Part shown: in pieces, positions 1 to 62,811 of the stretch
Layout of the letters: every line of letters starts with the position of its first letter
How positions within the stretch are numbered: the stretch's first letter is position 1
Assembly: GCA_026770705.1 (NCBI GenBank)
Contig: JANJGN010000021.1
Coordinates: 90,954,001-91,018,000 of the forward strand
Source of the DNA: Isurus oxyrinchus
Taxonomy: Eukaryota
Direction of reading: 5' to 3'
Length of the DNA stretch: 64,000 nucleotides
Notes under the pieces: model-generated
Database searches by the model: none
Seen by the model: only the letters and a program-made list of their open reading frames with translations
Told to the model about the DNA's origin: nothing
Translations under genes and position numbers: made by a program

Positions 1-50
1 TTCTATGATATTCCTTAAAGCAGTGCCTGTGTACTTCACTTATTTTTCAG

Positions 51-3190: not shown

Positions 3191-3199
3191 GTGGGGGAG

Positions 3200-7445: not shown

Positions 7446-7481
7446 ATATTGACCAACTGAGAAAATGTCTGAAATATACAG
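7446..7481 (+). CDS. Coiled-coil micro-exon A1, 36 nt, (D)IDQLRKCLKYT
   Basis: TTTGACTTTCCAG|atattgac...tatacag|GTGAGA; phase 1-1, no stop, hydrophobic residues at 2, 5 and 9. Confidence 0.75.
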
Positions 7482-7654
7482 GTGAGAAACAAAAGAATCG
7501 TTTTTTAAGTTAACTGAGCATTTATGCTGCGAAGCTGCACTGATTCATTGAAGACTTCATTTGTACGTATCACCTATACTTAAATCATGCAAGCTAGTCA
7601 AAAAAGTGAAAATGACATAATAGGGACAAAACGTTTGGTAGACAAAGCTAGTTT

Positions 7655-8975
7655 GGTTTTGATCTTCCAGAATTCCCTAGATTGTAGAACTATCTGTGGG
7701 ATGGGAGTAGAAAATGTAAACCTGCTATTCAAGAAAGAAGGGAAAGGGGCAATCGGAAATTGCAGGTTTTTTAGCCAGCCACCAGTCGCAATGGGCTCAA
7801 ACCTGCAATTGGTAACTTAATAATGTGGCACGTAGAAAAACAGAATATTATTGGACAGGGATAACACGGGTTTACGGAAGGGAAATCATGCTAAGCAAGT
7901 CTATTAGGCTTGATATAATGTAAGCAATAAAGTGAATGAGGGAGGTTTCGTGTGTTTCTATTTTCAAAAATGTAAATATCCGATAAATTGACATACACAA
8001 GAGATTATTACAAAAGAAATGTCCCATGTGCTTGTGATTAACAGCTGGAATGAGGAGCGGTTAAGGGACAAAGAAAATAGAGTTGACAACTGGTAATGAG
8101 CAGGGTGCTGTAAAGTTTGGCGCTTGAGTCTCAGCATTTACAATCTGTGTCAGAGAGTTAGATCAGAGGCTGGGTAGTAATGTTTCCAACTTACTGATAC
8201 TACAAAGTTGGGTGGGGAAAAACAACATTGAAGATGTCATGAACAAGATTCAAAATGAATTAGACAGGCAAATTAATGGGCAAGAAGGTGAGAGTTGTGA
8301 TATAATGCCGAGGAATGTGTTGATATCCACTTTGGAAGGAAAGAGAAAAGCCAAATAAGCAGGTAAATCGTGGGAAACAGGAAAATGTTTGTACACAGAA
8401 AGGGCCGGTGTCCTCGGCCACGAATCACAGAAAGTTAACGTGCGGGTAGAGTAAGCAATTCATAAAACATATCACATGTTAACATTTAATAAGACAACGG
8501 GATACAAAACAAAAGGGATTGTACTGCAAATATGCATGGACTTGTGCGACCACACCTAGAGTTCTCTGTAATTTTTGATTTACTAAGCTAGTGTAGAAAA
8601 TTCTTCCCTTGGACGAAATGCATCATATGGCATTGCAATGATACCAGAGATTAATGAAAAGTCCAATGAGGAAAAATGAGTAGAAAAAAATTACCTTTTT
8701 TAGAGTCTGGAGATTCAAGGCGTTGTTTCAATAAAACATATAAAATCCTTCAGGAAACATTTGGAATCCTCCACCGCAGTGACTTGTAGTGAGCACCGTT
8801 GAGTATATTCAAGTCATCAGTGGACAATGTTTGAATAATAGTGGATTCAAGGAATATGAAAAAGGTGCAACAAGTGCAGCTGAAGTAGAAGAGCAACTAC
8901 GATCAAGCTGAATTTCGCAGCAGACTCAAGTTTCGATTGACTTCCTGATGATCCTATTTCTTATGTTTTTGTATT
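7655..8975 (+). mobile_element. Decayed CR1 LINE, RT plus 3' tail
   Basis: IFQNSLD...ENVNLLFKKEG (ORF 7587), CGACCACACCTAGAG (RPHLE), 3' tail TCCTATTTCTTATGTT. Confidence 0.8.
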
Positions 8976-9204
8976 CCAAATCGCAATTTTATTCTACTAT
9001 TGCTGGCAACACGTAGACAGATGACCTAACAAGCTTAAGGTTTTTTATTAGCTATGCTTCACGTTATCCTTTGGTAAACAACAAATGTTCCTCTCCACAT
9101 AGAATAGGGGCTAACTTCAGCACATTTTTCTGAAACCGCTAATTATGTTTCAACGGTACAAAGCACATTACTTACTGATCTCAAGGAGAAAGACATTATT
9201 TTCT

Positions 9205-9500
9205 CTTCATGGGTGGTTGGCTTTGGGGGAAAAGCCAGTATTGGCCTCCTATCCCCAGTTGCCCTTGAGAATGTTGTGGCATGTAGTCTTCCTGAACAGT
9301 TGCAGTCTATCTGGAAGAAGTACACGCACTGCAATTATAAAGGGAATTCCTGGATTTTGAAAGAGCTGCAATGAAGAAACGGTACAGTTACAAGTTGGGA
9401 TGTTCTGTGGATTCAAGCGGAAATTGAAGGCGGTGGTACCTCCATGCGTTTGCTGCCCTCGTCCTTCTAGGGTGTAGAAACCGTGGGTTTGCTGCTGAGA
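9205..9500 (-). mobile_element. 3' end of the second LINE family (CR1/L2 group)
   Basis: Reverse-complement similarity to the 3' end of the 47055-48570 element. Confidence 0.6.
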
Positions 9501-9796
9501 TTGTATGTGCATTGGTTTTAATTTCCCAGAATTCCCTGGTATCTGGAAAGGCCCTATAATCTTGAGAAATGGCGAATGTAATTCCTCTGTTCAACATAGG
9601 AGGGAGAGGAAAGTAGAAAGCTACAAGCCAGGTACCTAACACCTGTCTAGAGAAAACGAAGGAATAAAAGAGGGCATAGAGGGGCACTTAGCAATGCTCA
9701 ATGCAATCAAACAGAATTAACCTGCTTTTGCGAATGTTTGCCTCATGCATTATGGATGGAATTTTATAATAGGGTAGAATTTGGGGAATAGATTAA

Positions 9797-10425
9797 GGCC
9801 TGAATCTTAAGTTCTTCGGGCGGGTGCGATAGCTGGGTCTGGAAGTGGATGCAAAAAGCGCATCCATCCGCAATTGCCCCGGCACGCACATTTCACGCTG
9901 GCTGGCCCACTAACGGGCAGCCAGCGTGAAACGCGCATGGCGAAAGCCTCGGTGCTGCGGTGGGGGGAGCGGGAAAGGGGGAAGACAGGGTTGGGGTGGA
10001 GTGGTGCAGGAAGAGGGCAGGCGCCAACAAAAGTGAAGGTACAGTTAGGTGCTCCTAGCGAGCTCCCTGAAGGCAGACAGCTGCTGTGGAGCTACATCAG
10101 AGAGCTGCAGACCTGAACAGATTAAATGACAAGAAAGAAATGCAGCACCTTCAAGCACCTGAGGGCAGAACTCAGAAACCATCTGTCCCCAGATATCTTT
10201 TTCTTCTGATATTTCACCCTGGACATTTCATCCCTGCCTTGATGGAGGTTTCAGCGAAATTAAAGGCCGCCAAGCCCGTCCACCAACTGTAAAATCGATT
10301 TCAATTGCTTCCTTATTCGTCTTAATTGCGAAATAAAGTGCGAGGGCGCGATGACATCGGGACGGGCACCCGACATCATCTCACACGATTTCACGGATTG
10401 GGCACACGTGCATAAAATTCTGGCC
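9797..10425. mobile_element. Harbinger-type MITE, copy 1
   Basis: TIR GGCCTGAATCTT / AAAATTCTGGCC with TAA on both sides (3-bp TSD typical of PIF/Harbinger). Confidence 0.8.
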
Positions 10426-10874
10426 TAATTGTTGGTAAATGTGATGTTGTCCACTTGGAAGGAACAATGGAAAAGTCAACGTTATTTAAATCGAGAAAAA
10501 CTTAACAACTCTCTAGGAGGGTGGGATCTTCGTGTCCTGGTACACGAATCACAAAATGTTAGCCCACAGGAACAGCCAGTGTATGTGCATTGGTTTTAAT
10601 TTCCCAGAATTCCCTGATATCTGGAAAGGCCCTATAATCTTGAGAAATGGCGAATGTAATTCCTCTGTTCAACATAGGAGGGAGAGGAAAGTAGAAAGCT
10701 ACAGGCCAGGTACCTAACACCTGTCTAGAGAAAACGAAGGAATAAAAGAGGGCATAGAGAGGCAGTTAGTAATGCTCAGTGCAATCAAACAGAATTAACC
10801 TGCTTTTGTGAATGTTTGCCTAACACATTATGGATGGAATTTTATAATAGGGTGGAATTTGGGGAATAGATTAA

Positions 10875-11530
10875 GGCCTGAATCTTGCGTTCTTCGGGCG
10901 GGCGCGATGGCCGGGTCTGGAAGTGGATGCAAAAAGCGCATCCATCCGCAATTGCCCTGGCACGCACATTTCACACTGGCTGGCCAACTAACGGGCAGCC
11001 AGCGTGAAACACGCATGGAGAAAGCCTCGGTGCTGCGGTGGGGGCAGCAGGAAAAGGGGAAGACGGGGTTGGGGTGGAGGGGTGCGGGAAGAAGGCAGGC
11101 GCCAACAAAAGTGAAGGTACAGTTAGATGCTTCTAGCGAGCTCCCTGAAGGCAGACAGCTGCTGCGGAGCTCCGTCAGAGAGCTGCAGTCCTGGACAGAT
11201 TAAATGACAAGAAAAGAATGCACGAAACTGTGTCTATGCAGCACATTCAAGCACCTGAGGGCAGAACTCAGAAACCATCAGTCCCCAGATATCTTTTTCT
11301 TCTTATATTTCACCCCGGACATTTCATCCCTGCCTTCATGGAGGTTTCAGCGAAATGTAAAGGCCGCTAAGCCCGTCCACCAACTGTAAAATCGATTTCA
11401 ATTGCCTCCTGATTGGTCTTAATTGCGAAATAACGTGCGAGGGCGCAATGTCATCGGGACGGGCACCCGACATCATCTCACACAATTTCACGTGTCATCA
11501 GATCGGACTCACGTGCATAAAATTCTGGCC
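10875..11530. mobile_element. Harbinger-type MITE, copy 2 (created by the duplication)
   Basis: Same TIRs, same TAA TSD and same flanks as copy 1. Confidence 0.8.
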
Positions 11531-12325
11531 TAATTGTTGGTAAATATGAAGTTGTCCACTTGGAAGGAACGATAGAAAGGTCAACGTTATTTAAATCGAG
11601 AAAAACTTAAGAATTCTCTAGGAGGGTGCGATCTTCGTGTCCTGGTACACGAATCACAAAATGTTAGCTCACAGGAACAGCCAGTGATGTTGCCGTTTAT
11701 TGTAAGGGGAATGGTAGACAACAATAGCTAAGTGTTGCTACAATTGTAGAGGGCATTGGTAAGAGCAGATCTATAGTCCTGTGTGCAGTTTCGGTCTCTT
11801 TATTTAAGAAAGGGTATAATTGCATTAGAAGCAGTTCAGAGAACGTTCACTCAACTGTTTTCCTGCATGATGGTGTATTTTATAGGGAAAGAGTGGACAG
11901 GTAAAGGCTGCATCCATTGGGTTTAGAAGAATGAGACGTTATCTTACTGAAACATATCAGATCCTGAGGAAGTTGACAGGATGGATGCTGAAACGATGTT
12001 TCCCCTTATGGGAGAGACTGGAGGTAGAGGGCACAGATTAAAAATAAGGAGCCTCCCGTTTAAGACCCAGATGAGGGGAATCCATTTCTCTCTCAGGAGG
12101 CCGTGAGCCTGTGCAATCATGTTCCAGAGAGAGTGTTGATCGCAGCGTAATTCAATATTTTTAAGGCAGTTGCATAGGTTCTTCACTAAGAGGACAGTCA
12201 AAAGGTGCAGGGAGAAAAATGGAGTTGCGGCCACAATCAGATCAGCCATGATCTTATCAAATGGTGCAACATGCTCGAGGGGCTGAATGATCTATTCCTG
12301 TTCATAGTCCATATGGTCATACAAT
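11531..12325 (+). mobile_element. CR1 LINE 3' portion
   Basis: LEAVQRTFT-like DNA at about 11825 and CR1 3' UTR CAGATCAGCCATGATCTTATCAAATGG...GCTCGAGGGGCTGAATG. Confidence 0.8.
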
Positions 12326-12759
12326 CATATAATAGGCGCTGTTAATTGAAGCTTGGAGGATTGTTGCAGTGCATATGATAAACACTGCTGCAACTGTGTG
12401 CGGTGGTACAGTGCATGTTTTAGTTGATGATTTCCGATGAAACGGTCTGTTTTGTCATGGATTTTGTTGAGCTTTTTGAGTGCTATTGCAATTGCAATCA
12501 GCCAAGCAAGTGAACAGTATTCCATCTCACTGCTGACTTACAAAAGTTCTAGACATAATCTTGTTGGCAATTCTGGCTGAATATGGTTGCGAATGCTTTA
12601 TCCTTGTCTTTTGTACTGCTGTGCTGTGCTTCCCCATCATTGAGGTTGGAAAGGTGTATGGGACCTCTTCCACAGGTGCATTCTTTAATTACCCACCACT
12701 ATTCCCGACCGGGTGGGACATTCGATGATGTGTCTGACTTAAATAAGTCCTCATGTGAC

Positions 12760-13900
12760 AGTTGCATCCAAAACTCTTGCAAATACTTCGTCGGTTGGAA
12801 AACGTTCCAAAGATGATTATCCATCCATTAAGCAACCCACTGAATTTCAGTCTCAATTAAAAAAGGTATTGGTAGAATAAATCCACTATTGTCCCTTCTC
12901 CAACAGGTAGCCAAAGTGAAGAGTGTTGTTAATATTTTGATTCAATGACCAACCGTCAAAGATCTGCTAGACCTACGCAAAATATGAGTTAAATGTATGC
13001 ATTCAAACTGATTAATGAGAATTTCCTCAGTTCCCTTAACATTTTGATTGTTATATAATTCAATTCTGGTGGACAATAGTACAAGATGATATTATGGCAG
13101 GCCTGCTAATGTCAAACCACTTATTCAAATTTAAAGTAATTTAATAATTTCACATGGATTTGATGATTTATGCCTAGGATTCAGGGAGATGATAATGAAA
13201 AAAAGTCGAGGCAGTTAACAAATACCTCATTGTACAGCAGATCATTTATTATTATTATTTCATGGGATCTGGAAGTCACTGGCAAGGCCAGTATTTGTTG
13301 CCCATCCCTAATTGCTATTGAACTTAAGGGCTCACAAGGGCATTTCAGAGGAGAGTTAAGAGTCAACCAGATCGCTGGAGTCACATGTATGCCAGGTAAG
13401 GATAGCAGATTTCCTTCTCTGAAGGGCATTACTTAACCGGATGCCACCATTATTGATGTTATTTCCAGATACATTTACTGAATGCTGAATTCCACCATGG
13501 GATTTTCAATTGTGTCCCCAAAGGATTAGTTTGGGGTTTGGGGTTGATAGTCCAGTGACGTTGCCAAGACCACCCCTGCCTTTTATTAAAGGATGTGACG
13601 GGAGAAAATATGTCATAACTTTTTTTTTCGTAATGACTCACAGACTAGGATTCAATACCTGCTATTTCATTTCTCGGTAAAATATTGGAGTTAATTGAAT
13701 TGGAATTACCAAGAATTGGGGGAACAAAATATCTAATCAGCAGATTTGATCAAGGATTTTTAGAGCTTGATAAAATTTATATTTTCAAAGAGGAGCTGAA
13801 AGGTTGAACAATTGCAGCCAACTTGATTCATTAGTAAACAATGAAAATATTGCTGAAAGCCAGGAAACAAATTTAACATGTAAACGATATTTTTCTTACT
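12760..13900 (+). mobile_element. Possible highly decayed hAT-like transposase relic, split by a SINE
   Basis: SILVDNSTR at about 13060-13086 resembles the hAT first-Asp motif (SIxxDESTD); coding-like GKILELIELELPRIGGTKY at about 13676. Motif-level similarity only. Confidence 0.3.
13250..13580 (-). mobile_element. tRNA-headed SINE with a LINE-related 3' tail
   Basis: Minus-strand head ...GTCACTGGACTATCAACC...GGGGACAC...AAATCCCATGGTGGAATT; the tail matches the second LINE family; a related copy lies at about 41385-41770. Confidence 0.6.
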
Positions 13901-14460
13901 GAAAAGTTTGGGTGGCTAGCATAGAACTAGGTCCCCGTTGTGTTACTTTAATTTACGATACATAAATAATCATCTGATTAGAGTAAATGATGAAGCAATA
14001 TCAAAATTGGCTCGTTTCACCTCCGTGAGTATCCCGTCTAATATTCAGGTCATGTTTAAGTTTATTTTAAATGGAGCTGGAGCCTTCTTTCCAACACATC
14101 AAATCTTCCATTCTACGAATTTCAATCGAAAGGGAAATCGGACCGGACATAAATCCAGTTTTGCACATGATGTTGCACGCTCCCCTGTAGAAGAACTGAT
14201 TAAAATTTCTTCACATATTTCTCATTGGAAGGAATCAAAATGCGAAACTAGAGATGCATTCATCAACATGTGTTGCTTTCTTCAGTCTATAATTTACTTG
14301 TTAAAAATGCCAATGTATTACTATATGCAGCACCTTGTCAAAAGATTACTATAATCATTCTTACCCCAAATGCTGAAAGTTTATAGACTTTGTTTGGCCA
14401 ACCGATTAATATATCATAGCGACTCTGTTTTAATAAAATAATGTTATATATACTACACAG

Positions 14461-14487
14461 AAGAAGCGTTCAGTGATAAAGAAAGGG
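14461..14487 (+). pseudogene. Micro-exon B1, 27 nt, (E)EAFSDKER, with inactivated donor (ATAAGT)
   Basis: TACTACACAG|aagaagcgttcagtgataaagaaaggg|ATAAGT. Same length, phase and pattern as the other B exons; the donor differs from GTAAGT only at +1. Confidence 0.5.
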
Positions 14488-15297
14488 ATAAGTGCACGAA
14501 CAGAAGCTTTTGAAAATATGATCAATAGGAACTGCTCTCAGCTCATATGTTTGCTTTTAAATTGATTGATGTTAGCCATGTCTGCCTCAGTGCTGATTTA
14601 ACCTTCTGTTCCCATTCATACAAATTATTACAACTACAATAGCCTGTTAAAAATAATTTATGATTAGGTAATATTAGATAAAAAAAAAGGTAATAGCATT
14701 CAGACAAAACAAAACTCGACAGATCTGCATAATGATAACGTGGGTGATTTTAAACCACACCCCCACCCCCTTTCTCTCGTTCTTTCATTCGTCCTTTCCT
14801 TAACTTATACTTGACTGCTGCTGAACGGGAGGCGTGTTGCCGTTTTCTCCTTGCAATTATTAGGGAAAACGCAAGAATGCCAAATTTCAAACGATCACAG
14901 CAATATGTACCACAGAAGAAAGCGCTGCTAATTATTTGACAAGTGGACTGTGATAGTCTGAGGCGTGTCCATGGAGATAACAGTGGGAAATGACAGGCTT
15001 CCCAAACTCCTACGTAATTCAACAAAATGCACAAAGGCACAAATTCCTTTGAGAACAGTTCACTTAATATGAATATATGTTGCGCCTAGCAACTGTAAAA
15101 GAGTCACGTTATGTTGATCGTAAAGTGGTTTTTATGGTACCTAATACCTATATATATACATCCAAAGTCAAAATACACTTTCCAGATGAAGCAGGTTAAA
15201 GTGCTCCCTTTCCCTATATACTTGAAGATTCTGATATTTTCACGTTCTATTAGACTCGCCTCTCCTATAAGAGTCGTTTGGTAGTACAGAATGTAAG

Positions 15298-18200
15298 TAT
15301 TGCTGACAAAGGAGTAACGTCAAAGCTTTTTGCCTTGCACTCACCAGACACTCATCAGGTTGGGCGAGATGTTGCAACCAGTCTTGAGCAAACTTTCCAT
15401 ATAAGCAGTGAAGGATTCTTTCTAAATTACCAAGACCATACAGAACTTGCATATCGATAACTATGTTGTATCCATGTGCTCCTTTGACATTCCAAGCCTA
15501 GTCACCAATTTTCCATTAAGGAAGAAGTATATTTTTGCTCTGCAACACTGTATCATTGGGATCTAGATCCCCCACTATTCCGGGAATCAGAATTCATTGA
15601 ACTTATGAACTCGGCAACTTGCACAGTTGAGTTCAACCTCAATAACACCATGCATGCCCAAATAGATGATGTTGCCATGGAATCTGCTCCAATCCGGCTC
15701 TCGCAAATATCTTTCTTGGTTTCCAAGAAAACGATGGAATGACACCAAAACTCCTATCCCTCACATATTTTTCATATTTGAATGATATGTTCGGTATATT
15801 TAAATCCAAAGCTGCATGTGATAATATCCATGCGTGCCATAATATGCTCCATGGTGCGTTCAAATTCATCTTTGCAATTGAGGAACAGCATAAGACATAG
15901 GAGCAGAAATTAGGCCATTCGGCCCATCGAGTCTTCTCCGCAATCCAATCATGGCTGATAAGTTCCTCAACCCCATTCTCCCCGTAACCTTTGATCCCCT
16001 TACCAATCAAGAAACTATCTATGTTGGTCTTATATACTCTCAATGACGTGGCCTACACAGCCTTCTGTGGCAATGAATTCCATAGATTCACCACTCTCTA
16101 GCTAAAGAAGTTTCTCCTCATCTCTGTTCCAAAAGGTCTTCCCTTTATTCTGAGGCTGTGCCCTCGGGTCTAGTCTCACCTACTAATGGAAATATCTTCC
16201 CCACGTCCACTCTATCCAGGCCTTTCAGTATTCTGTAAGTTTCAATCAGAACCCCCCTCATCCTTCTAAACTCCATCGAGTATAGACCCAGAGTCCTCAA
16301 ACGTTCCTCATATGTTAAGCCTTTCATTCCAGGGATCGTTCTCGTGAGAGGTCCAGAATATCTTTCCTGAGATACGGGGACCATAATTGCTCACAATATT
16401 CTAAATGTGGTCTGACCAGAGCCTTATAAACCCTCAGCAGCTTATCCCTGCTTTTATATTCTAGTCCTCTCGAAATAAATGCCAACATTGCATTTGCCTT
16501 CCTAATTACCGACTCAACCTGCAAGTTAACCTTAAGAGAATTTTGGACCAGGACTCCCAAGTCCCTTTGCACTCAAAATTTCTGAATTCTATCCCCATTT
16601 AGAAAATAGTCTATGCCTCTATTCTTCCAACCAAAGTGCATGACCTCACAGTTCCCCACGTTGTATTCTATCTGCTACTTCTTTGCCCATTCTCCTAACC
16701 TGTCCAAATCCTTCTGCAGCCTCTCCGCCTCCTCAATACTATTTGTCCCTCCACCTATCTTTGTATCATCTGCAAACTTAGCCAAGGTGCCCTCAGTTCC
16801 TTCATCTAGATCATTAATGTATAAAGTGAAAAGTTGTGGTACCAACACTGACCCCTGTGGAACTCCACTAGTCACTGGCCAGCATCCTGAGAAGGTCCCG
16901 CTTATCCCCGCTCTCTGCCACCTCCTAGACAGTCAATCTTCTATCCATGCTTGCATCTTACCTCTAACACCATGGTCTCTTATCTTAGTGAGCAGCCTTC
17001 TGTGCAGCAACTTGTCAAAGGCCTTCAGAACTCCAAGTAGATAACAATCATTGGCTCTAATTTGTCTAACCTATTCGTTACCTCCTCAAAATTCGAGCAG
17101 ATTTGTCAGGCGTGACCTCCTCTTGATGGAACCATGCTGCCTTTTCTCTATTTTGCCATACACTTCCAAGTATTCTGAAATCCCATCCTTAATACTGGAC
17201 TCTAAAATCTTACCAACGACCGAGGTCAGTGTAATCGGCCTGTAATTTCCCGTATTTTACCTCACTCCCTTCTTAGACAGTGGGGTTACCTTAGTGATTT
17301 TCCAGTCCTCTAGGGCCTTCCCTGACTCCAGTGATTCCTGAAAGATCATCACTAACGCCTCCACTATCACTTCAGCTATCTCCTTCAGAACTCTGGAGTG
17401 CAATCCATCTGGTGCATGTGATTAATCCACCTTCAGATCTTTCAGTTTTCCTAGCACCTTCTCCGTGGTAATGAACACCATACTGACCACTGCTCCACGA
17501 CTCTCTTGAACTTTGGATGTTACTCGTGTCTTCCACCGTGAAGACTGATGCAAAGTACCTATTCAGTTTCTCCGCCATTTCTCTGTTCCCTACTCCTTCT
17601 CCAGAGTCATTTTCCAGCTGCCCAGTTTCCACTTTTGCCTCTCTCTTACCCTTTATATATCTGAAAAAAACTACTGCAATCTTCTTTTATATTACTGGCT
17701 AGTTTACCGTCATATTTAATCTTCTCCCTCCTTATTTCTTTTTCGGTTGTCCTCTGTTGGTCCTTGTAGTTTTCCCAATCCCCTGGTTTCCCACGGCTCT
17801 TTGCTGCATTTTATGCTTTCTTTTTAGCTTTTATGCTATCCCTGACTTCCCTTGTCAGCCATCGTTGCCTCGTCCTCCCTTTAGTATTCTTCTTCTTCCT
17901 AGGTATGAATTTTTGCTGTGCCTCCCAAATTACTCCCAGAAACTCCTGCCATTGCTTTTCCACTGTCTTTCCTGCTAGGCTCATCTCCGAGTCAATTCTG
18001 GCCAGCTCCTAACTCATGCCTCTGTGGTTGCCTTTATTGAACTGTATTACCATTACATCTGATTCCAGCTTTTTCCTCTCAAATTGCAGAGTAAATTCTA
18101 TCATAATATGGTCACTTCCTCCGAAGGGTTCTTTCACCTTAAGCTCCCTTATCAAATCTGCCTTATTACACATCACTAAATCTAGAATTGCCTGTTCTGT

Positions 18201-19834: not shown

Positions 19835-19859
19835 TTTTCCAGTAATCTTTTAAATAGAT

Positions 19860-25200: not shown

Positions 25201-25219
25201 GCATGTAAGCTCAAGTAAA

Positions 25220-50147: not shown

Positions 50148-50171
50148 AATTGAACAAATGTCAAGAAACAG
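50148..50171 (+). CDS. Coiled-coil micro-exon A4, 24 nt, (E)LNKCQET
   Basis: TTCTCTATTTCCAG|aattgaacaaatgtcaagaaacag|GTGAGG; phase 1-1. Confidence 0.8.
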
Positions 50172-50999: not shown

Positions 51000-52165
51000 T
51001 CTGGCAACATGCCCACGCTGATAGTCTCCACTAAATTCAACTCTCTGGCTTCAAGGACTTAACCAATTCGCTTTTGAAAGTTATTATTGAATATGTTTGT
51101 AGTCGCAATTTTGAACAGTGCAATCCAGATCACAACAACTCACTCTGTTAAAAAAAATCCTCACGTTTTTTTTTTATTTTTCTCTAGTTCTTTTTGTTAT
51201 GTGCTAAAAATATGTCCTCTGGTACCCACGATTTCCGTTTCGAAAACAGCTTTGGTTCAATTAATTTATCAAACCCGTTGACCATTTGTAACATCTCGAT
51301 CAAATTTCCCATTAATATTATCACCTCTAAAGAGAAAACTTACAGCGCCTCGGGTCTTTCTACAAAACTAAACTTTGCCAGCTCTGTTCCCATGCTAGTC
51401 AAATGCTGCTGTCCCAACTCGAAGGCTTTGATTTCCTCCCTAAATTCTGGGTCAGAGGCTGAACACAATACTTCAGCTGAGGCCTAGCCAATTTTATACA
51501 AAGTTTTACAATAATTTTCAGTCTTTGACACACTATCCCCCTATTACTCAATCTAAAGAACTCATAGACATTTTATAAAAGCTGTCTCAAACTCTTCTGC
51601 CATTTTCAAAGCTGAGCTCAGGTCTTGGATTTCCTGCACCAAATTTTCTTTAAAATTATACTACCTACTTCATGATGTCCCTCATCATACCTTACAAACA
51701 TATTGTATGACTTCACACTTACCTGAGGTAAATATCATCTAGATTGTGATTTCCATTTCACCAATTAGCTTAATATCAATCCCTGGCAACACCACCATTG
51801 TTTACATCCCTCCAAATAGAAATAAAAACTTCCTACTACGCTACTCTCCACATTTGTTTCTTCAACCAATTCATTGGCTGTGCTGTCATTCTCTATTTAC
51901 TCCCATTCGTTCAAATTTTGCTTTAACATCTATTGTGTGCTAATTTTTCAAACATATTTGAACATCCCTACATATAAACCTCAGTTTCCTCAAAAAAGCT
52001 TCATAATACTTCATCAAAGAAGGTGAATTAAACAGAGTCTGTCTTTAACAATTTGCTACTGATAAATTTGATCTGGATTATTTTCTCTAAAATTTTCCCT
52101 CCACCGGCCATAGGTTGTCTGGTTAATAATTGCCAGGTTCATGCCTTTCTCTTCCTTTGAAAAAT
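51000..52165 (-). mobile_element. Decayed CR1 LINE
   Basis: CAATACTTCAGCTGAGGCCTAGCCAAT (LxRPQLKY reverse complement); TTAACCAATTCGCTTTTGAAAG 3' region. Confidence 0.7.
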
Positions 52166-52199
52166 TGCATTCAGTTTATGCTCATTTAGCCCTCTATAA

Positions 52200-52750
52200 T
52201 GAGGGAGTATGGCACTGTCGGAGGGTCAGTACTGAAGGAACGCTGCACTTTCAGTCAGTACCCAGGATGAACTGCACTGTCGCAGTTAGAGCATTGAGAG
52301 AGACCTGCATGGTTCGAGGTCAGCACTCAGGGAGCGCTGCACTGTTGAGAGGGATGTTGTAAAGGGGCACTAGAATGTCGGAGGTCAGTACTGACAGAAT
52401 GTTGCACTGACGGAGGATCAGTACTGAGGGGTTGCAGCACTGTCAGAGTGTCTATTTCATTCATTTAATCAGGTGTCCATCATAAATAACTAAATAATAT
52501 GAAAATTGTTTTGCATAAGGTTTACTATGAATGTCCCCACGGAAAATATTGGAAGCAGAGCACGGGGAGTTTTCCTTGTGGCGAATATTAATCCCTCAAC
52601 AGTATTACTCAGGAGCGAGATTAATTGGTCATGTTAGTAAGATCTTGATGCTTGTACATTTGCTGCTGGTTTTCATACCAAAGCCAGTGTTTGGAAATTG
52701 GTTTGGAACGCCCTGAGGTCATGAAAGGCATTGTTGAAAGGGAGAGTCTA
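52200..52750 (+). repeat. Satellite of about 33 bp (CAGTACTGAGGGAGTGCTGCACTGTCGGAGGGT-like) followed by a DeuSINE-like 3' half
   Basis: About 7 degenerate units at 52200-52450; GAGCACGGGGAGTT...CGAATATTAATCCCTCAAC and tail TTTGGAACGCCCTGAGGTCATGAAAGGC. Confidence 0.7.
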
Positions 52751-53361
52751 TTTTTCCAACATTGCTTTACTACATCACTAAGGAGTGCTGTGTTGAAATT
52801 ATAGCGCCCTTACTTTCCCCAGCATGTCTCAGCACTCCGTTTCAGATCAGCTCACCCACTACAGAATGAGACATGGGAAGAATCTGCGGTGTACCCTGGA
52901 AGGAGGAATGAGTGGTTCGGTGGGTTGGGGTGAGCGGGCGACTCGCCCCCTCTACAATGAGTCAGCATGAAGCCCACAGACTCCGCCCCCAGTAGCCCCA
53001 CAGCAATGAAGCGCTGTGGGGTTCATTAGCAAAAACCGAGTAGCACTTCAGCATCCTATATTGTAGAACGGTACCTGCAGACTGGATGAGCTTATTGATC
53101 CCGAATGGGGCGCAAGTCCTTCCCCGATTGGCTGGAAGCTGCATCAGTCCCCGAAGCGCCAGGAGGATATCAATGGCAACTGCCAGACTACAGCTGATGA
53201 GAGGAGATGAAGGTCAATGTTTTATTGAATGGGGAAGCTGGATCGAGGGGTCGAATGGCCCACTCCTGATTCTGTTTCTTATGTTCTAGGAAACTCGTTA
53301 TCTATTTTACCCGGTCCAATATAATTACTGCATCTTACTTTTAGTGCTACCTATGCACTAC

Positions 53362-53413
53362 CCCCTCTTCTCATAATGACCCATGCACCCCTCTTCTCAT
53401 AATGACCCATGCA
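53362..53413. repeat. Perfect 26-bp tandem duplication
   Basis: CCCCTCTTCTCATAATGACCCATGCA x2. Confidence 0.95.
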
Positions 53414-53917
53414 GGTTTATCATTTAGTATGGCAGCCATGCACTGCTCTTCCAAACGAAGATGTAATTTAGGATCCTTCATCGATGCTGATAATCATTTT
53501 ACTACAATTTTGCTATATATCTGCTGAGCGGGATTACATGGTGCTTTGGGTCCTACTAACCCTGAAGCAACCACAGAAACGTCGATTTGCGCCTTTCATA
53601 CAGAGGTGATGGTCAGAAAGGATATATTCTGTGCATATTTCAAGGTATTCAACAAAGCTTTTTCCTTTGATACACATCATAGATGGATTGATCATGAAAA
53701 AGAAAAACGTTTTAAGGAGACAATGCCTATGCTTATCTGACCTTCTGCAAAAGATCCTGGAGACTGCCATGGTGGGCACACTTGTTTACCAAATAACAAA
53801 ATATACTGTTTTGATCCTGGAGCATTTTAGTTAATTGGTTGCTGCGGCTGGTTTTAGATTTGTAATGGTAGATGTTGTACAAAGCTGCCTGGTTTAAAAC
53901 TAGTGGAGTCATCGTTC

Positions 53918-54552
53918 AGGTCCTGAATTTTTCTGATGGGGTCTCACTTCCTGCCATACAAGAAGTCAGTGAGGAATACATTGGATGGGCATTAAATAAC
54001 TGCAGGCGGGACTCCCGCCCCTTGCTCGGGAGGAAGTCCGGCTGTGGAGAGCTACTGGTCAATCTGAATGGCCAGCAGCTCTCCAGTTCCTGCAGCAATC
54101 ACTCTGCAGAGGGCAGAAAAGACATGCAAGAGGACGTTGTAGCCTAAGTCCGGGCACCGCAGGCCCAGCTAAATTCGAGAGGTCCCCAGACCAGGGTAGG
54201 GAAGGCCTGGGGGCACGAAGGGGACGATTGGGTTTCAGGGGAGAGGCCTGACGGAGAGGAGGTCCGGTGGCCACCGGGCCTTAAGTGAGGGAGCCGGACT
54301 TCAGGTGGGGGCATCTGCTGGTGGCGCCACCCGCCCTTCCGGCCAAGATGTAACTGTTCTTTTTCAGGTTTGCCCCTCGGAAGTTCAATCCTCCTGCTAG
54401 GCTATTAATTGGAGCAAGGGCCTGAGGCCCTACCCGTCCCAGCGTGATATCGCTATGTGGTTGGGGCAGATGGGAACCGGGAAGGAATCCCATCCTTTCA
54501 ATTTCAGACCCCGCCTAAAACCCTGCGGTAGGGGAGCGTAGAATTCTGGCCC
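53918..54552. mobile_element. GC-rich Harbinger-type MITE
   Basis: GGTCCTGAATTTT ... AGAATTCTGGCCC termini, same TIR family as 9797-10425. Confidence 0.65.
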
Positions 54553-54848
54553 GTGGTGCAAGGTATGTGTACAAATTGTTACCAGGGGGATAATGACAAA
54601 TTATTTAGATGTTGAACTGAATCTAACCACTGATTGTGTCGCTCATTAGTAGATTCTGGCATTTCATGTTTTGAGTCAGCGAGATACCTATTTCCACGAC
54701 AGCGTGAAACTTCCGACGCAGCTAATATTATAGAATCTGGTGGAAGACACAGGTCATGGAAGATTTCTATCTCCTAGACCTAGCTGAAAGAACACTTTTT
54801 CTTGCTTTCATTGTCTTTCTTTTGAAAGTATGTATTTCTTACTTATAG

Positions 54849-54875
54849 AGAATCGTATGTTTCAAAAACAGACAG
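54849..54875 (+). CDS. Coiled-coil micro-exon B4, 27 nt, (E)NRMFQKQT
   Basis: TATTTCTTACTTATAG|agaatcgt...cagacag|GTAAGA; phase 1-1. Confidence 0.8.
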
Positions 54876-56116
54876 GTAAGAACATAAAATATTTCGATGA
54901 AAAAGAAGACAGTCCTTTTAATAAACTGTATGATCTCTTAAGAAACCTCCTCTAAAGATATGAAAAATCTAATGGGAAAAAAACGGCTTCTGCAATATTT
55001 CACCTCTTTCTACAACTTTTACCTCACCATTTGTTTGAACTGTTCTGGTAACTGAATGCAATTAATTACAGGTTAGTTTTCATTGTTTTTAATTCACACC
55101 ATTCCATAAATTCTTATTATTGTAAGACACAATATTTTTGCCTTGCATGTAGTCGTTAGATTTCAAATCATCACTCCAGATTCACCTAAATAGAACAATT
55201 TATAATACCCGAGAAATATTGCTAATTAAGAGTTAAAAGTCTGATAACTCAGGGCGTGTGTTTTAGGTTCTGTTGAGCATGAATTAAATGAAAGTTATAT
55301 GATTTAGCACATTGAAACATTCAAAATATACACCACGTGGGCGGCTTAATGCTGTAAGGCTCAACCATAGTGCATGTTAACCTGATATAAGTGGAATCTT
55401 GAATCACCTGATCGCGCCTTGATACTTTCTGAGACCGATATAACAGAAGAGGTGCATCCCAAACTATTATTCTAGAGTTTTGTTGGAAGGTGTTGAGGGA
55501 TTAAAGTAGGAAATCAAACATTTCGCCTCAAGGTCCCTTTCAAATGAAAGTCTAATCTGTAACCAACCTTGAAACCTGTGGTTTACGAAATGGATCTTCA
55601 AGAAGCAGCAGTGACACTTCTGAGGATAAGAGTAATGTCCAGTAACTGAATGGCGAGCAAAACATCTAACTCGAATCAATCAGAAACTGTATCGAACATT
55701 TGAAATCAATACGTTCCAAGGTTTTGATCATATGTCCAGAAAGCAAAATATTCACCAAAATGTTGTGTAACAGCGTGTAAAAAAAGCGGGTAAATTTCAG
55801 ACAATACCCTTGGATCTTGAACGTGAGTGAAGAGGGAGAGAACAATGAATGTGGTCACAAGGTTGTGAAACTACATTTTCCGATTTTCATCCTGGTATAT
55901 CAAGCATATAAATATCTGGCAGAACATCTTAGTTATATTTTCCGCTATGCCCCCACCTCCAACACTGGCTAACAGCCGGGTGAGAGTGTAAAGTTTAATC
56001 CTGTAACACAGCCAGAAAAATGTGTGATAAACTCTTCAGGCAGACCCGTGCCCAAACGATCAAAATGTGAACATGAGGCTAAACAGCATTTTTATCTTTG
56101 TTTGTTTGTTCCACAG

Positions 56117-56143
56117 AACTAGAAAATCATATTAAAATGTCAG
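56117..56143 (+). CDS. Coiled-coil micro-exon A5, 27 nt, (E)LENHIKMS
   Basis: TTTGTTTGTTCCACAG|aactagaa...aatgtcag|GTTTGT; phase 1-1. Confidence 0.75.
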
Positions 56144-57380
56144 GTTTGTGACATCGCCCTTATGTGATATATATGCCAGGAATATGTTAGAACACTAGTT
56201 AAATGCATAGATCGTTAAACGCTTTGCTTTTCTAAAGAAAGAAAGGTGGCGCAGCTTATAGGGTTAAACGAAAATCATTATAATGTATCATTTATTACAG
56301 TTTTACTACCCAAATAATTATTGGCTTAACATTGCTCTGCACCTACACAGGATATGAATTCCTACACAACAATAACGTCAGCTGGTCCATTCTGTCCAGT
56401 ATTGATTTGGCTGTCCTTATCAACTGAAAAGGCAGGTGATTAGTTTAACATCGGCTGCCTGAGCAAGCGAACGAAAAATATGCAAACATTTTCCCACTAG
56501 CCGAGCCTCACGTTTGTGGGAGATGAACCCGGGTTGCTGTTAATTGCCTTGAAGGTTGACTTACCTCCCTCAGCAACATGAAGTTCCACCTCAGATAGCC
56601 GCCAACTAATTAGAGGTCACTAGCTCTCCAGTGACTGCAGTGCCACCAGCAGCGGTGGCTATTAGTGAAACTGCAGAAAGAATTGTGGGATGGAGATACT
56701 GCTTTGTAAGTCAGATGTTATCGCCAGGTCCAGAAATATAAGACTCTTAGGAGGAGGAAAGGTGAGACCATAGTTGGCGAGAGGGGATGTGGGGGGTATT
56801 TTTCTGTGCGCTGTTAGAAAAGCCAGGTGAATGGAAGGCATCTGTCAACTGTGATGGGCCCATGGGACCCGGCTCCCATTGAAAGTTGCCTCTTTGGAGG
56901 CTTAGTCTTGACCTGTGCTGCAGCTTCTTAAGCCCCATGTCGTTTTATGCCCACACACACATCCCCACCGCATCACACTACCTACTCCATCCTCAAACCC
57001 CCCCCCCCCCCCCACCATCCTGACCTATCAACCCGCTGCAAAGTGCACTAAAATGCAGCCCATGTTTGTAACCATCAAATCAGTAACTGGTTAATTCTCA
57101 CATTTCGGTACTGAATGCAGCTGGGGCAGGTAGAAAGGAATAACGATAAACAGCATGAGAACATCTGGGTCGGTGAAGGGAAATTAATACAGGGACCCCT
57201 GCTCTGAGTGAATGAATATAATCTTGGTACGAAGAGTAGGCACCTTTGTAATGAATTATTAGATGCCTTTAGTGACCGTCAATGATTGAAGGTAAATAGC
57301 AATTACATGGAACTTGACTGAGAGAGAGGGAGGCCGCACCGAATGACACACAGGCAGATAGCCACACAGATATATGAACA

Positions 57381-57552
57381 TAAAAACAGAAAATGCTGGA
57401 AAAGCTCAATAAGCCTGGCAGCATCTGTGAGGCGGGAAAAAGCTTCAGGTCAAGAACTTGAAAAGACTGTTTCGTTTTTACACGGATGCTGTCTGACTGC
57501 TGGTGCATTTCCAGCAATTCCTGTCTGTGTTTCAGATTTCCAGCATTCAGCA
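57381..57552. mobile_element. Older copy of the fold-back PLE-derived element
   Basis: ACAGAAAATGCTGGAAAAGCTC...GGCAGCATCTGTG / CACGGATGCTGTC...TTTCCAGCAATTCCTGT arms. Confidence 0.7.
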
Positions 57553-58632
57553 TTTGCGTTATGTTGGTACATAGACATTATGGGAGGCATCACGAAAAGA
57601 GTTTACTGCTATTTTTTTTTTAATTTCTGTGCGATCATTGCTCCATTGCATTTTGGAGCTTGTTGCTGCTTTCCTGAGGAGAAATGCTAATAGCACCAAA
57701 ATATGTCTGAGTAAATACGTAGAATTAGCCCTGGAACCATATTGGCATGAATTTCACGTTTCCCCGCCAGTGGGTTTTTGGGCTGGGGTGGGAGCGTGAA
57801 ATAGCAGGAATGGGCAGGAATGGGCACTGGTTTCCCAGCCGCTCTGACCTCTGAACGATTTTACAGTGAGGCGGGTGATAGCTCGGATGGGCCTCCCGCC
57901 CTTGACCGATTTGAGGCCCTTGAGTGGCCAATTATTGAACATTTAATGGCTGTTTAACCCCCAGCCTGAATGATTTTCCGGGCTTCGGCGATACTCAAAA
58001 ATGATCCGGTTTACATCTCGGGCAGGATGAGCAGGGGCACTTCCACCCAAAGCCCCCTTCCAACTTTGGTTGCTCCCCCGCCCCACCTCCTCTCCACCAC
58101 TTAAGGCCAGGTGGACCTCACTCCTTCCACAGGACTCTCTCCCGAAAGTCCTCTCCCAATCCTCCACTATCCATACCCACAGGCTGCCTCTCCCCTCCTC
58201 GTGTACAACCAATTCACGCTCATCAGAGAGCGAAATGGTTACGGGGGCAGGCAGTGCCGATGCCCCCCAACGATCCCTGGCCCTTCGAGTGGTGGGACAG
58301 GATCCGAGATATCCCAACCATTATACTCTGGTACTATTGGTATTCAGAACAAAGTGCTATCAGGGAGTCGGCAGTCATGTGTGGCTTTTTGATGCATTGG
58401 AGATTCTGGAAGCGAAGAATATTGATAAGATCATTTGAAACTGACTTGGGACACCATTTTTCATGGAACTAGCACCGCAATTAAAGGAAATCAAAGAAAA
58501 ATGCATCGTTGTGTGCTCCACGATGATTAAAAGTGATAGACTATGCCCCTAGCTATTTTTGCCACGTTGAAAAGAAGATATTCCTGTATGGCCCTTCCCC
58601 TTTAGATCAAATTAATTTGTGTATTTTTACAG

Positions 58633-58659
58633 ACAAACAGATTGAAATCAAAGACAAAG
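58633..58659 (+). CDS. Coiled-coil micro-exon B5, 27 nt, (D)KQIEIKDK
   Basis: GTGTATTTTTACAG|acaaacag...gacaaag|GTAACA; phase 1-1. Confidence 0.75.
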
Positions 58660-58959
58660 GTAACATCCTGCAGAAGAAAACGTGATTCTAAATATTCAAT
58701 GCTCTGTACTTTAAATTAAAACCACGTTTAACTCCTTAATTTCTTATGTGGGTTCGCGATGATTTTCTGAAACAAGGGGGAAGGTCATACAGTATTTGCT
58801 AATGAGTCATGATTGAAATGGAGGAAAGTGGGACATCTATTATGATGTTACATTTGGGTGAGGCTGGCCCTATGTGACGAACAAGTCACTTTTCACTGTA
58901 TAATGGGCAAATACATTAATGGTTTAAATGACAGAAGATAATTAGGAGGTATTCAAAAA

Positions 58960-60770
58960 AAAGGTACAGTGTTACAAAAGTCTAAATAACAAGAGTTGAA
59001 CTTGCCAAAAAAGGCAGCCATGGAGAATGGAGAGATAAGAGGTAACAGGAAACTGAAAGAAACCTTGCAAAAATGCAAAGGAAAAGAAACATGGATCTTG
59101 GCAACAGTCAAATATGCAAAAAAGCAACGGGCCAAAAATCAGTGTAAAGAAAGTTGCAAGGGAGGTGACCATCAATACAAATATGTTTTATATTCACCTT
59201 AGCAAAAACAGAGGGTGGTTGATGGGTGGTAACAAGGCAATGGCGGACATATTGAGCAATTGCTCTGCGACAGTATTTATAGCAGGTGCAGAAACCCCAT
59301 GCCACATATTCAAGGTAGAACTAAAATTGAATCAAAGGCAGGGCAGCAAGGAAAAATAACTTAGGCAAGGTAACAGTATTGGAGAAATCAGTGGCACTAA
59401 AGAGCGACATATCACCGTAACCAGATAACCTCTATTGTAGTGTTGTAAAGGAATTAGGCAAGAACATGTCAGATGCCATAACTGTAATTATCCAAAGGTT
59501 CTCAACTGGCAACCAATTCCTTAGTTTCGATAATTATGTATGCCAGCCCACTATTTATGAAAGCTAACAGAGGGAAACCAGCCAACTATAAATCAGCTAA
59601 AATGAAATCTGTGGCCAGGAAACTGCTAAAATTTGGAATTAATGATAGGGTGACAGCACAGTTTGACAATCTGAAAATGATCAGAGAGAGCCAGCATGGA
59701 CTTTAAAATTGCAATTCCTAACATGAATAAAACTTTTGAAGATGTGACTAAAATTGTGAACAGGGCAATGCCAGGGGACATTGTTTTCCTGGAATTACAG
59801 AAGGTTCTAGAGAAAGCCCCACAGACGAAATTGTCAGATGAAGTTGACTTTCGTGCAATTGAAGGCAAATTATTGACCTGTATAGGCAATTTGCCAAGCA
59901 GAAGGAGACAAAAAGCGGTGGAGAATCGACAGTAAGCATTCACTCAATTTATTAATGACTTTGATGATGGCATGCACAGCCACACATAACAACCTGCAGA
60001 GGGCGTGGGGAGAGTCAATAGTTTAAATACTATAGTGTAAAATTACAAAGGAATATGGATAAGCAAAACTGCACCACACGGATATCAATGCAGGAAATTA
60101 TAGACCTAAAAAGGTGAGAATAATGAAGACCAAGAAACTGGAGACTATAAAACATATGAAGGCCCCGATGCATATATCTTTCAAATGTTAAGGACAGAAA
60201 CAGAAAATGAGGAGCAAGGTTAATCTTAATATACAGAAAATTATATACAGAAAATTATCATGCAACAGTGTAGAAGTCATGCTTCAACTGTACGAAGCTG
60301 TTGTGGGACCACACCTCAAACAGTAGGGACATTTGAATCCTACACCATAGGAAGGTTATGTTGGCTTTGCAGGGAGCGAGGCGCAAATTTATTGGAATTG
60401 TGCCCAAACTCCAGGCATTAAGTTAGCAAGAGAGAATGAACAAACTAGGGTAGCATTCCCTGGAATTTGGAAGGTAAATTAGTCATTTGATTGAACTTTT
60501 GAAGAAAAGAAGAGGAGCAGATACGGAAGACTGGGAGAAACTACTTTATCTCGTTGGAAATCAATGACTAGTAAGCATAACTTTGGCGTTGGAGCCAGGT
60601 CGTCCTTGAGTGAATTAAGAAACATCTCTTCACGCAAAAGGGTGGGAGAAGCTTGGAACACTATTCCAAATATCGATTGATGGAGATTTGTTAGGAAGAA
60701 ATATTTGGTAAAGGTGCATATATCAGGTAGCTTACAGTTCAGCGATATATCACCAAATAGCGGAACAGTC
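58960..60770 (+). mobile_element. Decayed CR1 LINE
   Basis: FEDVTKIVNRAMPGDIVFLELQKVLEKAP; GGACCACACCTC (xPHL); CTTCACGCAAAAGGGTGG. Confidence 0.75.
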
Positions 60771-61449
60771 TATCATACCTGAAGAAAGCTTGAATCAATT
60801 TGCTTACATGACGCTTGGTGCAGTTGTCAAAAAAATGTAAGTGGCAAGAGAGCGTTCTGTCAGAAGTGACAATGAACACTTTCTTGTTTGTATCCATGTG
60901 GTCACTCTTCCAGTTCCTGTCCCAATGTCACCAATGTGTTCGCTTCTTCACTCAATAACTGCGATGCATCTGCCATCAGAAAACGTATGATTTTCAAAGT
61001 TAATTGGCAACACTTGGAAGGCTGCAAGGACATTTCATCCTGAAGTGCCCACAATTATTGCTGACAATCATGCTTTGTTTCTGGAGATTTATTGCACTGC
61101 GATTTGTGCCCCCATTTTTCCCTATACTCAATCCATTATACAGGGAATGTTGACAGTAGCAACACTATAATTTCCTGCTTCAATGTCATAACAATAGAAA
61201 CAGCAGCACAGTGAGCATCTCGTTCAATTTAAGTAGGTTGAAAAGCACATTTAAATAGATCGCATATTAGAGCTCCAATATATCGTTAATCAGTGCATCA
61301 TCAGGGTGACAAATAAAGGACGCCTCTTACTGGCAAGTTGCTTGATCAATAAAGATCCTGCTATAAATCAAAAGTCGCCTCCGGCTATTTGCAAATAATT
61401 GCAATGCCTCATAACAATTACGGGTATCCAAGAATCATTGATGTGCTTG

Positions 61450-62278
61450 CTAATGGAAAATCAACATGAACTCATTAACTGTATCTGTCAAAAGTTCAAG
61501 ATTAGGGTTATCTGTCAAAGCAGTTGATATTTGGTTCCAACATTCCACCGACTTTTGCATCAGTTTGGAATCAATGTATAGAGTGTCCAGTTGAGAGTAG
61601 ACGTAGCCTAATTGAACAGATTGTTGGCCATCCTGTTTGCTGCTGCCTTCATCTGATTCATAAGGGCTGTCGCATTTAAAGTTCTTATTATCTTTCATTA
61701 ATTTTGACAAAATGTATTCCTTCTGTAAACCTGTCAAATGTTCCATTTTCCTGAATATTTTTTCACTTGAAAGAGATTTTTCTGAGACTTCATCCGCCCA
61801 TATAGATCCTAGCGAGTATTGAACTGGAGTTCTATCGACGCAGTGGATAGCTAGCATCCATGCCTCTGAGCCAGAAAGTCCAGGTTCAGGTCCCGCTCCA
61901 GGACCTTATGGCCACAGAAGGTGTACTCATAAAACGGGTAGCCAAGTTTCTTATCAATCTGTAAATTCTTCAAAGAGCCTCCTGGGCACCCATGCTTGAT
62001 GTGGAGTGATGGCCATTAAGCCATAGCCTCTGGTGAAAGACTCGCGACCTATTCCAGGAAGCTAGTTATGAAAACAAGCAGAAGAACATCCTTTGTCTAC
62101 CTTAGGCATCATTAGAGGCATGAAAGCCAATAACTAAGTATTGAGCTTCAATGATCTGGATATCACTGTCATATAATGCACGACCTATATCTAGGTTTGA
62201 TACCGCTCGTTTTGTGTAAGTAATGAACAGAAATGCCCATGGGTATCGTTTCAGAATCGTCCTTCTATGGTACTGCAG
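61450..62278 (-). pseudogene. Unidentified coding relic (168 codons after SINE removal)
   Basis: LQYHRRTILKRYPWAFLFITYTKRAVSNLDIGRALYDSDIQIIEAQY|SLGSIWADEVSEK...NEFMLIFH is continuous in frame once 61815-62136 (SINE plus one TSD) is removed. Confidence 0.45.
61823..62136 (+). mobile_element. tRNA-derived SINE with TSD
   Basis: Box A-like GACGCAGTGG, box B-like GGTTCAGGTCCC; TSD AGTATTGA at 61815-61822 and 62137-62144. Confidence 0.75.
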
Positions 62279-62775
62279 TTATCAATGTTAAATTCAACCC
62301 TGGGCAAATTGTCATCACTTGATCGACCTAATGCCTAACAGCTCGTCAATATATAATCACAGCTATTTTAGTGAAATCTACAAGGGCAGTAGAAATTTTT
62401 ATTTAAATTAATCTGTAGAACACATGTTTTGTATCCTTGCATTGTCGCTAAAGAAATAAGTCTGGGGCTTCAATCGCCACAATTATAAGACACTGAATGC
62501 AGATGCACATTTCCAAGACACTAGTGAGAACCTCAGGCATGGAAAATGTCATGAACAGTCACCATAACTGTTATATTGAAATACGGATTAAATTAGTTGG
62601 ATTTTCGAGATGTAACGTTAAAGGGCTATGTAGTGACTGCATATCACGAAAGTTCTCAAGATTTGTTTTTTGAACCCATAAGATCTGCAAGTCAAAAGTC
62701 GTATTTTAAATCACAGTGGAATCTATAGTTTTATCACATTGATTACTCGACAGTCGTTCGCTTCCTCTTTTTCAG

Positions 62776-62811
62776 AAAAAGCAGAATTGACTAAAATGCT
62801 ACAAATTTCAG
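62776..62811 (+). CDS. Coiled-coil micro-exon A6, 36 nt, (E)KAELTKMLQIS
   Basis: CTTCCTCTTTTTCAG|aaaaagca...aatttcag|GTAAAT; phase 1-1, L5/L9. Confidence 0.8.

Follow-up and report, generated by a model that had tools for sequence, protein, structure and literature searches.

We found a chain of very short exons in the genome of Isurus oxyrinchus that likely belongs to one predicted gene of about 430 kb, which takes in the whole of a 64,000-nucleotide (nt) stretch (the window; 1..64000, plus strand) and exceeds both of its ends. The window is positions 90954001 to 91018000 of contig JANJGN010000021.1 (C21) in assembly GCA_026770705.1. A preliminary description of the window, made from its letters alone, had singled out 13 micro-exon segments. 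We conclude that the 13 are probably exons, all from the 5′ third of the gene. Judged from its sequence, the product is probably a cytosolic protein of ~1,300 residues, in which a coiled-coil rod of ~1,100 residues, built in segments, connects a short acidic head to a B30.2 domain at the C terminus. We examined 714 kb (window plus flanks) and extended the window numbering into the flanks (<1 or >64000), so that a contig position is 90954000 plus the coordinate.

All 13 segments were found on the plus strand at the positions described. Each follows AG and is a multiple of 3 nt long (390 nt in total), and each reads without a stop in phase 1 and gives the peptide reported. GT donors follow 12 of them; the next letters after the segment at 14461 are ATAAGT. 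The flanks are AT rich (61 to 70%), and self-BLAST of the 714 kb showed no repeat overlapping any of the 13. For scoring candidates, a splice-site and codon/amino-acid model was trained solely on 60 exons that match a catshark protein (see below) and lie outside the window. At scores of ≥10, there were 9 candidates on the plus strand and 0 on the minus strand, with a mean of 0.15 (maximum, 1) in 20 local shuffles; at scores of ≥8, the counts were 11 versus 2. The nine top candidates all belong to the 13 segments. The four weaker segments are 54849 (8.7), 56117 (4.7), 23686 (−2.0), and 14461 (no GT). Each occupies its expected slot in the exon alternation described below (14461 was judged by inspection), and 54849 and 56117 are further backed by a match to a duplicated block. 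Three unlisted candidates in the window (25557, 28209, and 28810; scores of 6.5 to 8.1) were not accepted; the minus strand reaches the same scores.

The micro-exon chain runs on the plus strand from −25.9 kb to +390.2 kb, and the modeled gene has at least 115 micro-exons over ~430 kb, with a median spacing of 2.4 kb. Among the 115, 72 are 27 nt long, 27 are 36 nt, 10 are 24 nt, 3 are 21 nt, and 3 have other lengths. Together, they give 1,316 codons with no internal stop, and the codon split at the exon joint encodes E or D in 80/115. The list uses a score threshold of 9, retains training exons below it, and includes choices made by hand: 154341, 212514, 213121, 285580, and 329314 were dropped (one lies in a repeat; the rest were judged weak or lack catshark support), 23686, 54849, and 56117 were put in, and 14461 was excluded. 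The likely exons 64641, 126253, and 176454 stand outside the count. Over the whole region, the trained model gave 137 candidates on the plus strand versus 4 on the minus strand, the plus count including most of the 60 training exons.

Upstream of the chain, we found an exon with an ATG and, before it, an exon of 63 nt that contains a stop in frame (Table 1). The ATG exon recurs at C21 90.416 and 90.858 Mb with its ATG and first residues kept, and conservation among the three copies starts at the ATG. The stop-containing exon precedes the ATG exon in two copies, this gene and an upstream paralogue, copy A (in the latter by eye). The ATG exon itself is phase 1 to phase 1, and its frame is open upstream of the ATG. 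By these genomic features, translation likely begins at the conserved ATG exon behind the stop-containing leader exon. A B30.2 exon ends the chain downstream. Between −34 and +394 kb, we found no second copy of the ATG exon and no other B30.2 remnant.

With the B30.2 exon as the query, we retrieved catshark XP_038671249.1 (945 amino acids [aa]; SPRY is its only Pfam match). From +144 kb on, 62 of 71 exons are colinear on this protein, with 380/522 residues identical (73%), and 47 of 61 neighboring placed exons abut with exactly one split-codon residue. The catshark protein begins at a Met within the counterpart of the +144438 micro-exon, i.e., downstream of the window. Because this Met lies inside a micro-exon counterpart, the protein looks truncated at its 5′ end. 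The B30.2 domain is 93% identical to that of basking shark XP_078422387.1 (175 aa). The RefSeq relatives, all automatically named, are these two, XP_072329362.1, and XP_069775418 to -428 (Narcine, "golgin A6-like"); each is an orthologous or close paralogous fragment, and none contains the window exons or the ATG exon. Further members occur, again under automatic names, in S. torazame, Narcine, Chiloscyllium, Hemiscyllium, Rhincodon, Cetorhinus, and Callorhinchus. The named members of the B30.2 clade are all from cartilaginous fishes; two more family-scoring proteins carry no organism.

Eight window exons and the four just downstream of it recur as a block at +136763 to +163112, with exon lengths agreeing in 12/12. 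This offset is the best non-self match (score of 117 versus 101 for the next; mean, −19). The two copies share 32% amino acid identity, and second codon positions have changed least (0.37 versus 0.52 and 0.58). Because splice sites are intact despite such divergence between the blocks, long selection as coding exons is suggested. Most of the +136.8- to +163.1-kb block is covered by the catshark protein.

We found that the micro-exons fall into two classes. Class A exons have hydrophobic residues at positions 2, 5, and 9 and encode 8, 9, or 12 aa; class B exons have one at position 4 and mostly encode 9 aa. The classes alternate at 0.84 of joints versus 0.50 expected (reached by 0/5,000 shuffles), and the alternation continues through the window and downstream with few breaks. 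The class rule was devised post hoc, with the exons already seen, which counts against it. A class-free test gave a periodic power of 0.61 in the real exon order versus 0.39 ± 0.04 (maximum, 0.51) in 300 exon-order shuffles. Pairs of A and B span 21, 18, or 17 residues in 39/42 cases. By arithmetic, such pairs are +0, +4, or +3 relative to heptads, and lone exons of 9, 12, or 8 residues are +2, +5, or +1. The available part of PMC4786415 gives heptad insertions of 3 or 4 residues as the best-understood discontinuities, with insertions of 1 or 5 more demanding and those of 2 or 6 under the greatest strain. We infer that the A+B pair is the building unit: three heptads (21), a stutter (18), or a stammer (17).

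The preliminary description had held that any subset of exons could be skipped in frame. The frame is indeed kept, but single skips lower the coiled-coil periodicity and double skips do not: in simulations, junction power was 0.664 for the native order, 0.523 after one skip (P = 0.0006), and 0.630 after two (P = 0.42), with P values that are optimistic because the 104 junctions overlap. The loss of a pair would give a shorter rod with its register kept, and a single skip would introduce a kink or hinge. A point against strict pairing comes from the isoform models that RefSeq gives for relatives. The differences among them are mostly lone units of 6 to 12 aa, so skipping is not limited to pairs; linkers hold some of these differences, and three or more fall in rod exons. 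It is thus probable that exons are also skipped singly, which would give the rod additional hinges. The AlphaFold model of the catshark orthologue (a monomer) has long helices, low-confidence short linkers, and a beta-sandwich head (predicted local distance difference test score, 65.9; predicted template modeling score, 0.29). The head matches TRIM and BTN B30.2 structures.

We propose that the rod grew by duplication of exon pairs and larger blocks. The rod would self-associate and hold its B30.2 heads ~160 nm (1,100 × 0.148 nm) from the Tyr-bearing head at the other end. There, the acidic head contains YINI, which we take to resemble a phosphotyrosine SH2 site; the motif site reads His in a decayed paralogue, copy A′. 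By analogy with a BG/butyrophilin tail without its anchor, the rod with its B30.2 heads could work in the cytoplasm as a long tether or adaptor, a role that we put forward tentatively.

Table 1. Exons of the window and outer exons of the modeled gene (all on the plus strand; window numbering unless marked C21)
Feature	Position	Strand	Score	Remarks
63-nt leader exon, likely 5′ untranslated region	C21:90918713-90918775	+		In-frame stop
First coding exon, 132 nt	ATG at C21:90920233 (exon at −33.8 kb)	+		ATG + 39 codons, phase-1 donor
11 upstream micro-exons	C21:90928107-90953832	+		
Micro-exon, 36 nt, class A	7446..7481	+	13.2	
Micro-exon, 27 nt, class B	14461..14487	+		Fills B slot flanked by A exons; no second copy in genome
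Micro-exon, 36 nt, class A	21818..21853	+	13.9	Near-copy 74 kb before window, in paralogue A′ (decayed)
Micro-exon, 30 or 27 nt, class B	22208..22237, alternative start 22211	+	13.5, 14.1	
Micro-exon, 42 nt, Pro containing	23686..23727	+	−2.0	Strong donor; positional counterpart of +127508 exon
Micro-exon, 24 nt, class B	35147..35170	+	13.0	First exon of duplicated 12-exon block
Micro-exon, 27 nt, class A	37477..37503	+	18.8	
Micro-exon, 27 nt, class B	40011..40037	+	26.9	
Micro-exon, 24 nt, class A	50148..50171	+	14.3	
Micro-exon, 27 nt, class B	54849..54875	+	8.7	Block match
Micro-exon, 27 nt, class A	56117..56143	+	4.7	Weak donor GTTTGT; block match
Micro-exon, 27 nt, class B	58633..58659	+	23.3	
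Micro-exon, 36 nt, class A	62776..62811	+	16.7	
92 downstream micro-exons	C21:91018439-91344259	+		
Terminal SPRY/B30.2 exon, phase 1	394264-394784 (C21:91348264-91348784)	+		

Individual window exons differ in how firmly they can be read. At 14488 to 14493, ATAAGT stands instead of GTAAGT on an otherwise well-formed class B exon; the exon at 14461 is likely dead, skipped, polymorphic, or affected by an assembly base error. A similar AT donor occurs in copy A′, 84 kb upstream of the window. GC donors occur in family exons at C21:90716358, 90729938, 91259246, 90368007, and 90371806, of which 90716358 and 91259246 are counterparts. The exon at 22208 has a tandem CAG/TAG acceptor, and the frame is kept with either start. 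The exon at 23686 is likely a hinge and is the weakest member of the set. The exon at 62776 resembles exons of the paralogue at C21:89.7 Mb and of catshark XP_038672306.1. The window also holds LINE fragments at 18012 to 18389 (minus strand) and 47116 to 47511 (plus strand), with endonuclease and reverse-transcriptase Pfam matches, and an Rfam scan of it gave 0 matches.

Three further copies lie upstream on the same strand, within C21:90366001-90891000. Copy A (C21 90.416 to 90.829 Mb; ~413 kb) has many intact-looking micro-exons and a decayed B30.2 exon 126 kb upstream of the window; its product may be a headless rod. Copy A′ (C21 90.858 to 90.891 Mb; ~33 kb) also has a decayed B30.2 exon. 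Of the third, we found 3′ exons at C21 90.37 to 90.39 Mb and no B30.2 exon. Identity between copy A and this gene is 65% over 27 exon pairs, and changes are most frequent at third codon positions (0.33 versus 0.22 and 0.19). Close B30.2 paralogues occur at C21:89.72 Mb and at five places on another contig, C34, and micro-exons lie upstream of all three (C21:89.72 Mb and two on C34) whose flanks were examined. On C34, a 20-Mb contig, the five B30.2 exons of the clade lie at 2.7 to 7.5 Mb, and C2-set immunoglobulin (Ig) matches were seen at 16.4 to 16.5 Mb.

The contig also carries major histocompatibility complex (MHC) sequences: 31 of 33 MHC class I matches are on C21, the nearest at 93.6 Mb. 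A butyrophilin IgC cluster starts at 95.6 Mb, on the downstream side at a distance of 4.7 Mb, and more than 100 SPRY matches lie between 82 and 118 Mb. Far from the main cluster, at C21:66132994-66134184 (minus strand), class I alpha-1 and alpha-2 matches lie in an 845-aa open frame, which is unusual and possibly a read-through intron or a retrocopy. At C21:112486000-112548000, near-identical SPRY exons recur every ~5.5 kb, a young tandem amplification.

We compared the gene with the families that share its parts. The four same-strand copies (90.37 to 91.35 Mb) form an MHC-linked tandem array, as in chicken-type BG genes, whose products are disulfide-linked dimers at the cell surface with one IgV domain and a TM segment; the heptad exons are followed by a terminal B30.2 exon, as in butyrophilins; and coiled coil and B30.2 occur together, as in TRIM proteins. 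Nevertheless, membership in all three fails because no Ig, transmembrane (TM), or RING exon was found. Pfam searches of 146 of the 159 low-repeat plus-strand open reading frames (ORFs) of ≥60 aa from −130 to −25 kb gave 0 Ig/TM matches; the remaining 13 come after the ATG exon. Over 464 to 714 kb, motif scans covering Ig, TM, RING, B-box, lectin, fibrinogen, and P-loop sequences found the B30.2 exon alone and gave no hydrophobic phase-1 exon for a signal or TM segment; the stop in the leader exon bears on the same point as a genomic inference. Longer-exon scans of nonrepeat sequence found no domain exon, and neither the locus nor the family proteins scanned yielded a RING or B-box. Five family proteins with B30.2 gave SPRY as their only Pfam match, and the B30.2 domain of this gene gave no PRY match. 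In a quick maximum likelihood tree of 36 rows (midpoint root, quick search), the 14 family B30.2 rows lie on one side of a branch of length 1.11 (Shimodaira-Hasegawa-like approximate likelihood ratio test, 100), apart from the BTN and TRIM rows. We therefore rejected assignment to BG (the exons are also not 21-nt one-heptad units, and B30.2 is present), to butyrophilins, and to TRIM. The earlier label "BG/butyrophilin-like" thus holds for a related kind of gene, given the terminal B30.2 exon and the MHC class I and butyrophilin IgC exons on the contig, but not for membership. The proposal of a cartilaginous-fish coiled-coil micro-exon gene was borne out by the chain, the catshark orthology, and the strand and shuffle controls. 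Its expected absence from annotation is largely confirmed by public models that are fragments without the window exons. Of the upstream Ig/TM and downstream B30.2 exons suggested for search in the flanks, only the B30.2 exon was found.

Several observations weigh against one continuous gene. Transcript support was not obtained for the window exons or the ATG exon. Two RNA comparisons say little either way. Contigs assembled from four putative-RNA runs gave no exon-exon joint against window positions 21700 to 40300 and mostly repeat signal, and the bins with 21818, 22208, and 37477 were uncovered; the 31-letter words compared are longer than the majority of the exons. A sequencing-run search with the B30.2 exon found no matching run recorded as RNA. 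In the same four runs, a short repeat at 38052 to 38185, likely an abundant SINE, has very high depth. The 13 window peptides showed no clear one-to-one orthologue among eight family proteins (best BLOSUM scores, 15 to 29), and no public protein containing the window exons was found in searches that were weak. A protein search with the ATG exon, likewise weak, gave three candidates, none at E ≤ 10. B30.2 is missing from the ends of the public models for the S. torazame and Narcine relatives, one window donor is not GT, and decay happens at this locus, since neighbors A and A′ have decayed B30.2 exons. The window exons could then be real but separate or silent, as a 5′ transcript ending before B30.2 or a recently abandoned duplicate block, with the expressed protein starting downstream. 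Public models that reach only from +144 kb onward, or less, would fit this, as would the unmatched ATG exon, the 14461 donor, and the decayed neighbors. We consider it unlikely: 12 of 13 GT donors and all frames survive despite the 32% identity to the duplicate block, the alternation runs through the window unbroken save in a few places, and no second ATG exon or B30.2 remnant lies between.

The gene could instead encode a true membrane BG/butyrophilin, with the micro-exons specifying its cytoplasmic tail; its signal, Ig, and TM exons would then have diverged beyond recognition or be located farther upstream. The butyrophilin/BG tail layout is shared, as far as the available sections of PMC4046983 and PMC8813856 describe it, the ATG exon has phase 1 at both ends and an open frame before its ATG, and the locus is on the MHC contig. 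We regard this as very improbable, given the upstream ORFs without Ig/TM matches, the distance to the nearest IgC exon, conservation of the three copies from the ATG on, the SPRY-only relatives, and a B30.2 domain apart from BTN. That the segments are chance AG...GT intervals in AT-rich intron has next to no probability. Weak candidates (scores of 6 to 9) do occur on both strands, and 23686 scores below background, but the strand and shuffle counts, orthology, block duplication, and register alternation refute a chance origin for the set; single weak exons are possible exceptions. All of these data taken together favor a single gene that runs from the ATG exon to the B30.2 exon.

If so, a coding gene of half a megabase can go largely unnoticed in a shark genome, because aligners and indexes work with words that are longer than the majority of its exons. 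The gene adds a B30.2 family next to the MHC, seen here in cartilaginous fishes only, and is relevant to the origin of the TRIM, butyrophilin, and BG architectures from common micro-exon and B30.2 parts. The A/B alternation ties exon boundaries to coiled-coil geometry and predicts which skips are tolerated. More speculatively, and at somewhat less than even chances even for its simpler tether role, we suggest as a possible but doubtful extension that cartilaginous fishes have a third MHC-linked B30.2 branch beside TRIMs and butyrophilins. Its members would be anchorless giant micro-exon rods with a two-letter register code, a splice-programmable ruler in which pair skips set length and single skips place hinges, with an immune-type head.

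In titles and abstract openings, with incomplete coverage, we found no description of this gene family or of an alternating code; the gene lists of PMC12841164, available in part, may include fragments. The accessible portions of PMC4046983 and PMC8813856 describe chicken BG proteins as IgV plus TM without B30.2, with 13 to 36 exons that each encode one heptad and are 21 nt, or sometimes 24 nt, long, and report that zipper protein, from a BG tail, regulates actin-myosin. Compared with that account, the shark gene likewise has a long predicted coiled coil of many tiny exons in an MHC-linked, one-orientation tandem array with copy turnover, but has at least 115 exons, mostly of 27 or 36 nt and paired, with B30.2 and with no Ig/TM found. 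The same portions give the butyrophilin/BG tail layout as micro-exon heptads and then a B30.2 domain. Unlike BTN/BTNL proteins, as covered in the parts of PMC12841164 and PMC8813856 available, the heptad region is ~1,100 aa rather than short, and no IgV, IgC, or TM was found; the shark B30.2 is on a long separate branch with no PRY match. TRIM-B30.2 proteins resemble the product in being cytosolic (here by prediction) with coiled coil plus B30.2, and RefSeq calls relatives A33-like, TRIM39-like, or TRIM58-like; in contrast to them, the rod is built from micro-exons, the B30.2 clade is separate, and no RING/B-box was found. Enterophilin-1 is a mammalian cytosolic protein with an extended leucine zipper and B30.2 and without a membrane anchor. 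By this architecture, it would be the closest functional analogue of the shark protein. An interaction of enterophilin-1 with SNX1 is cited in the available part of PMC13749957.

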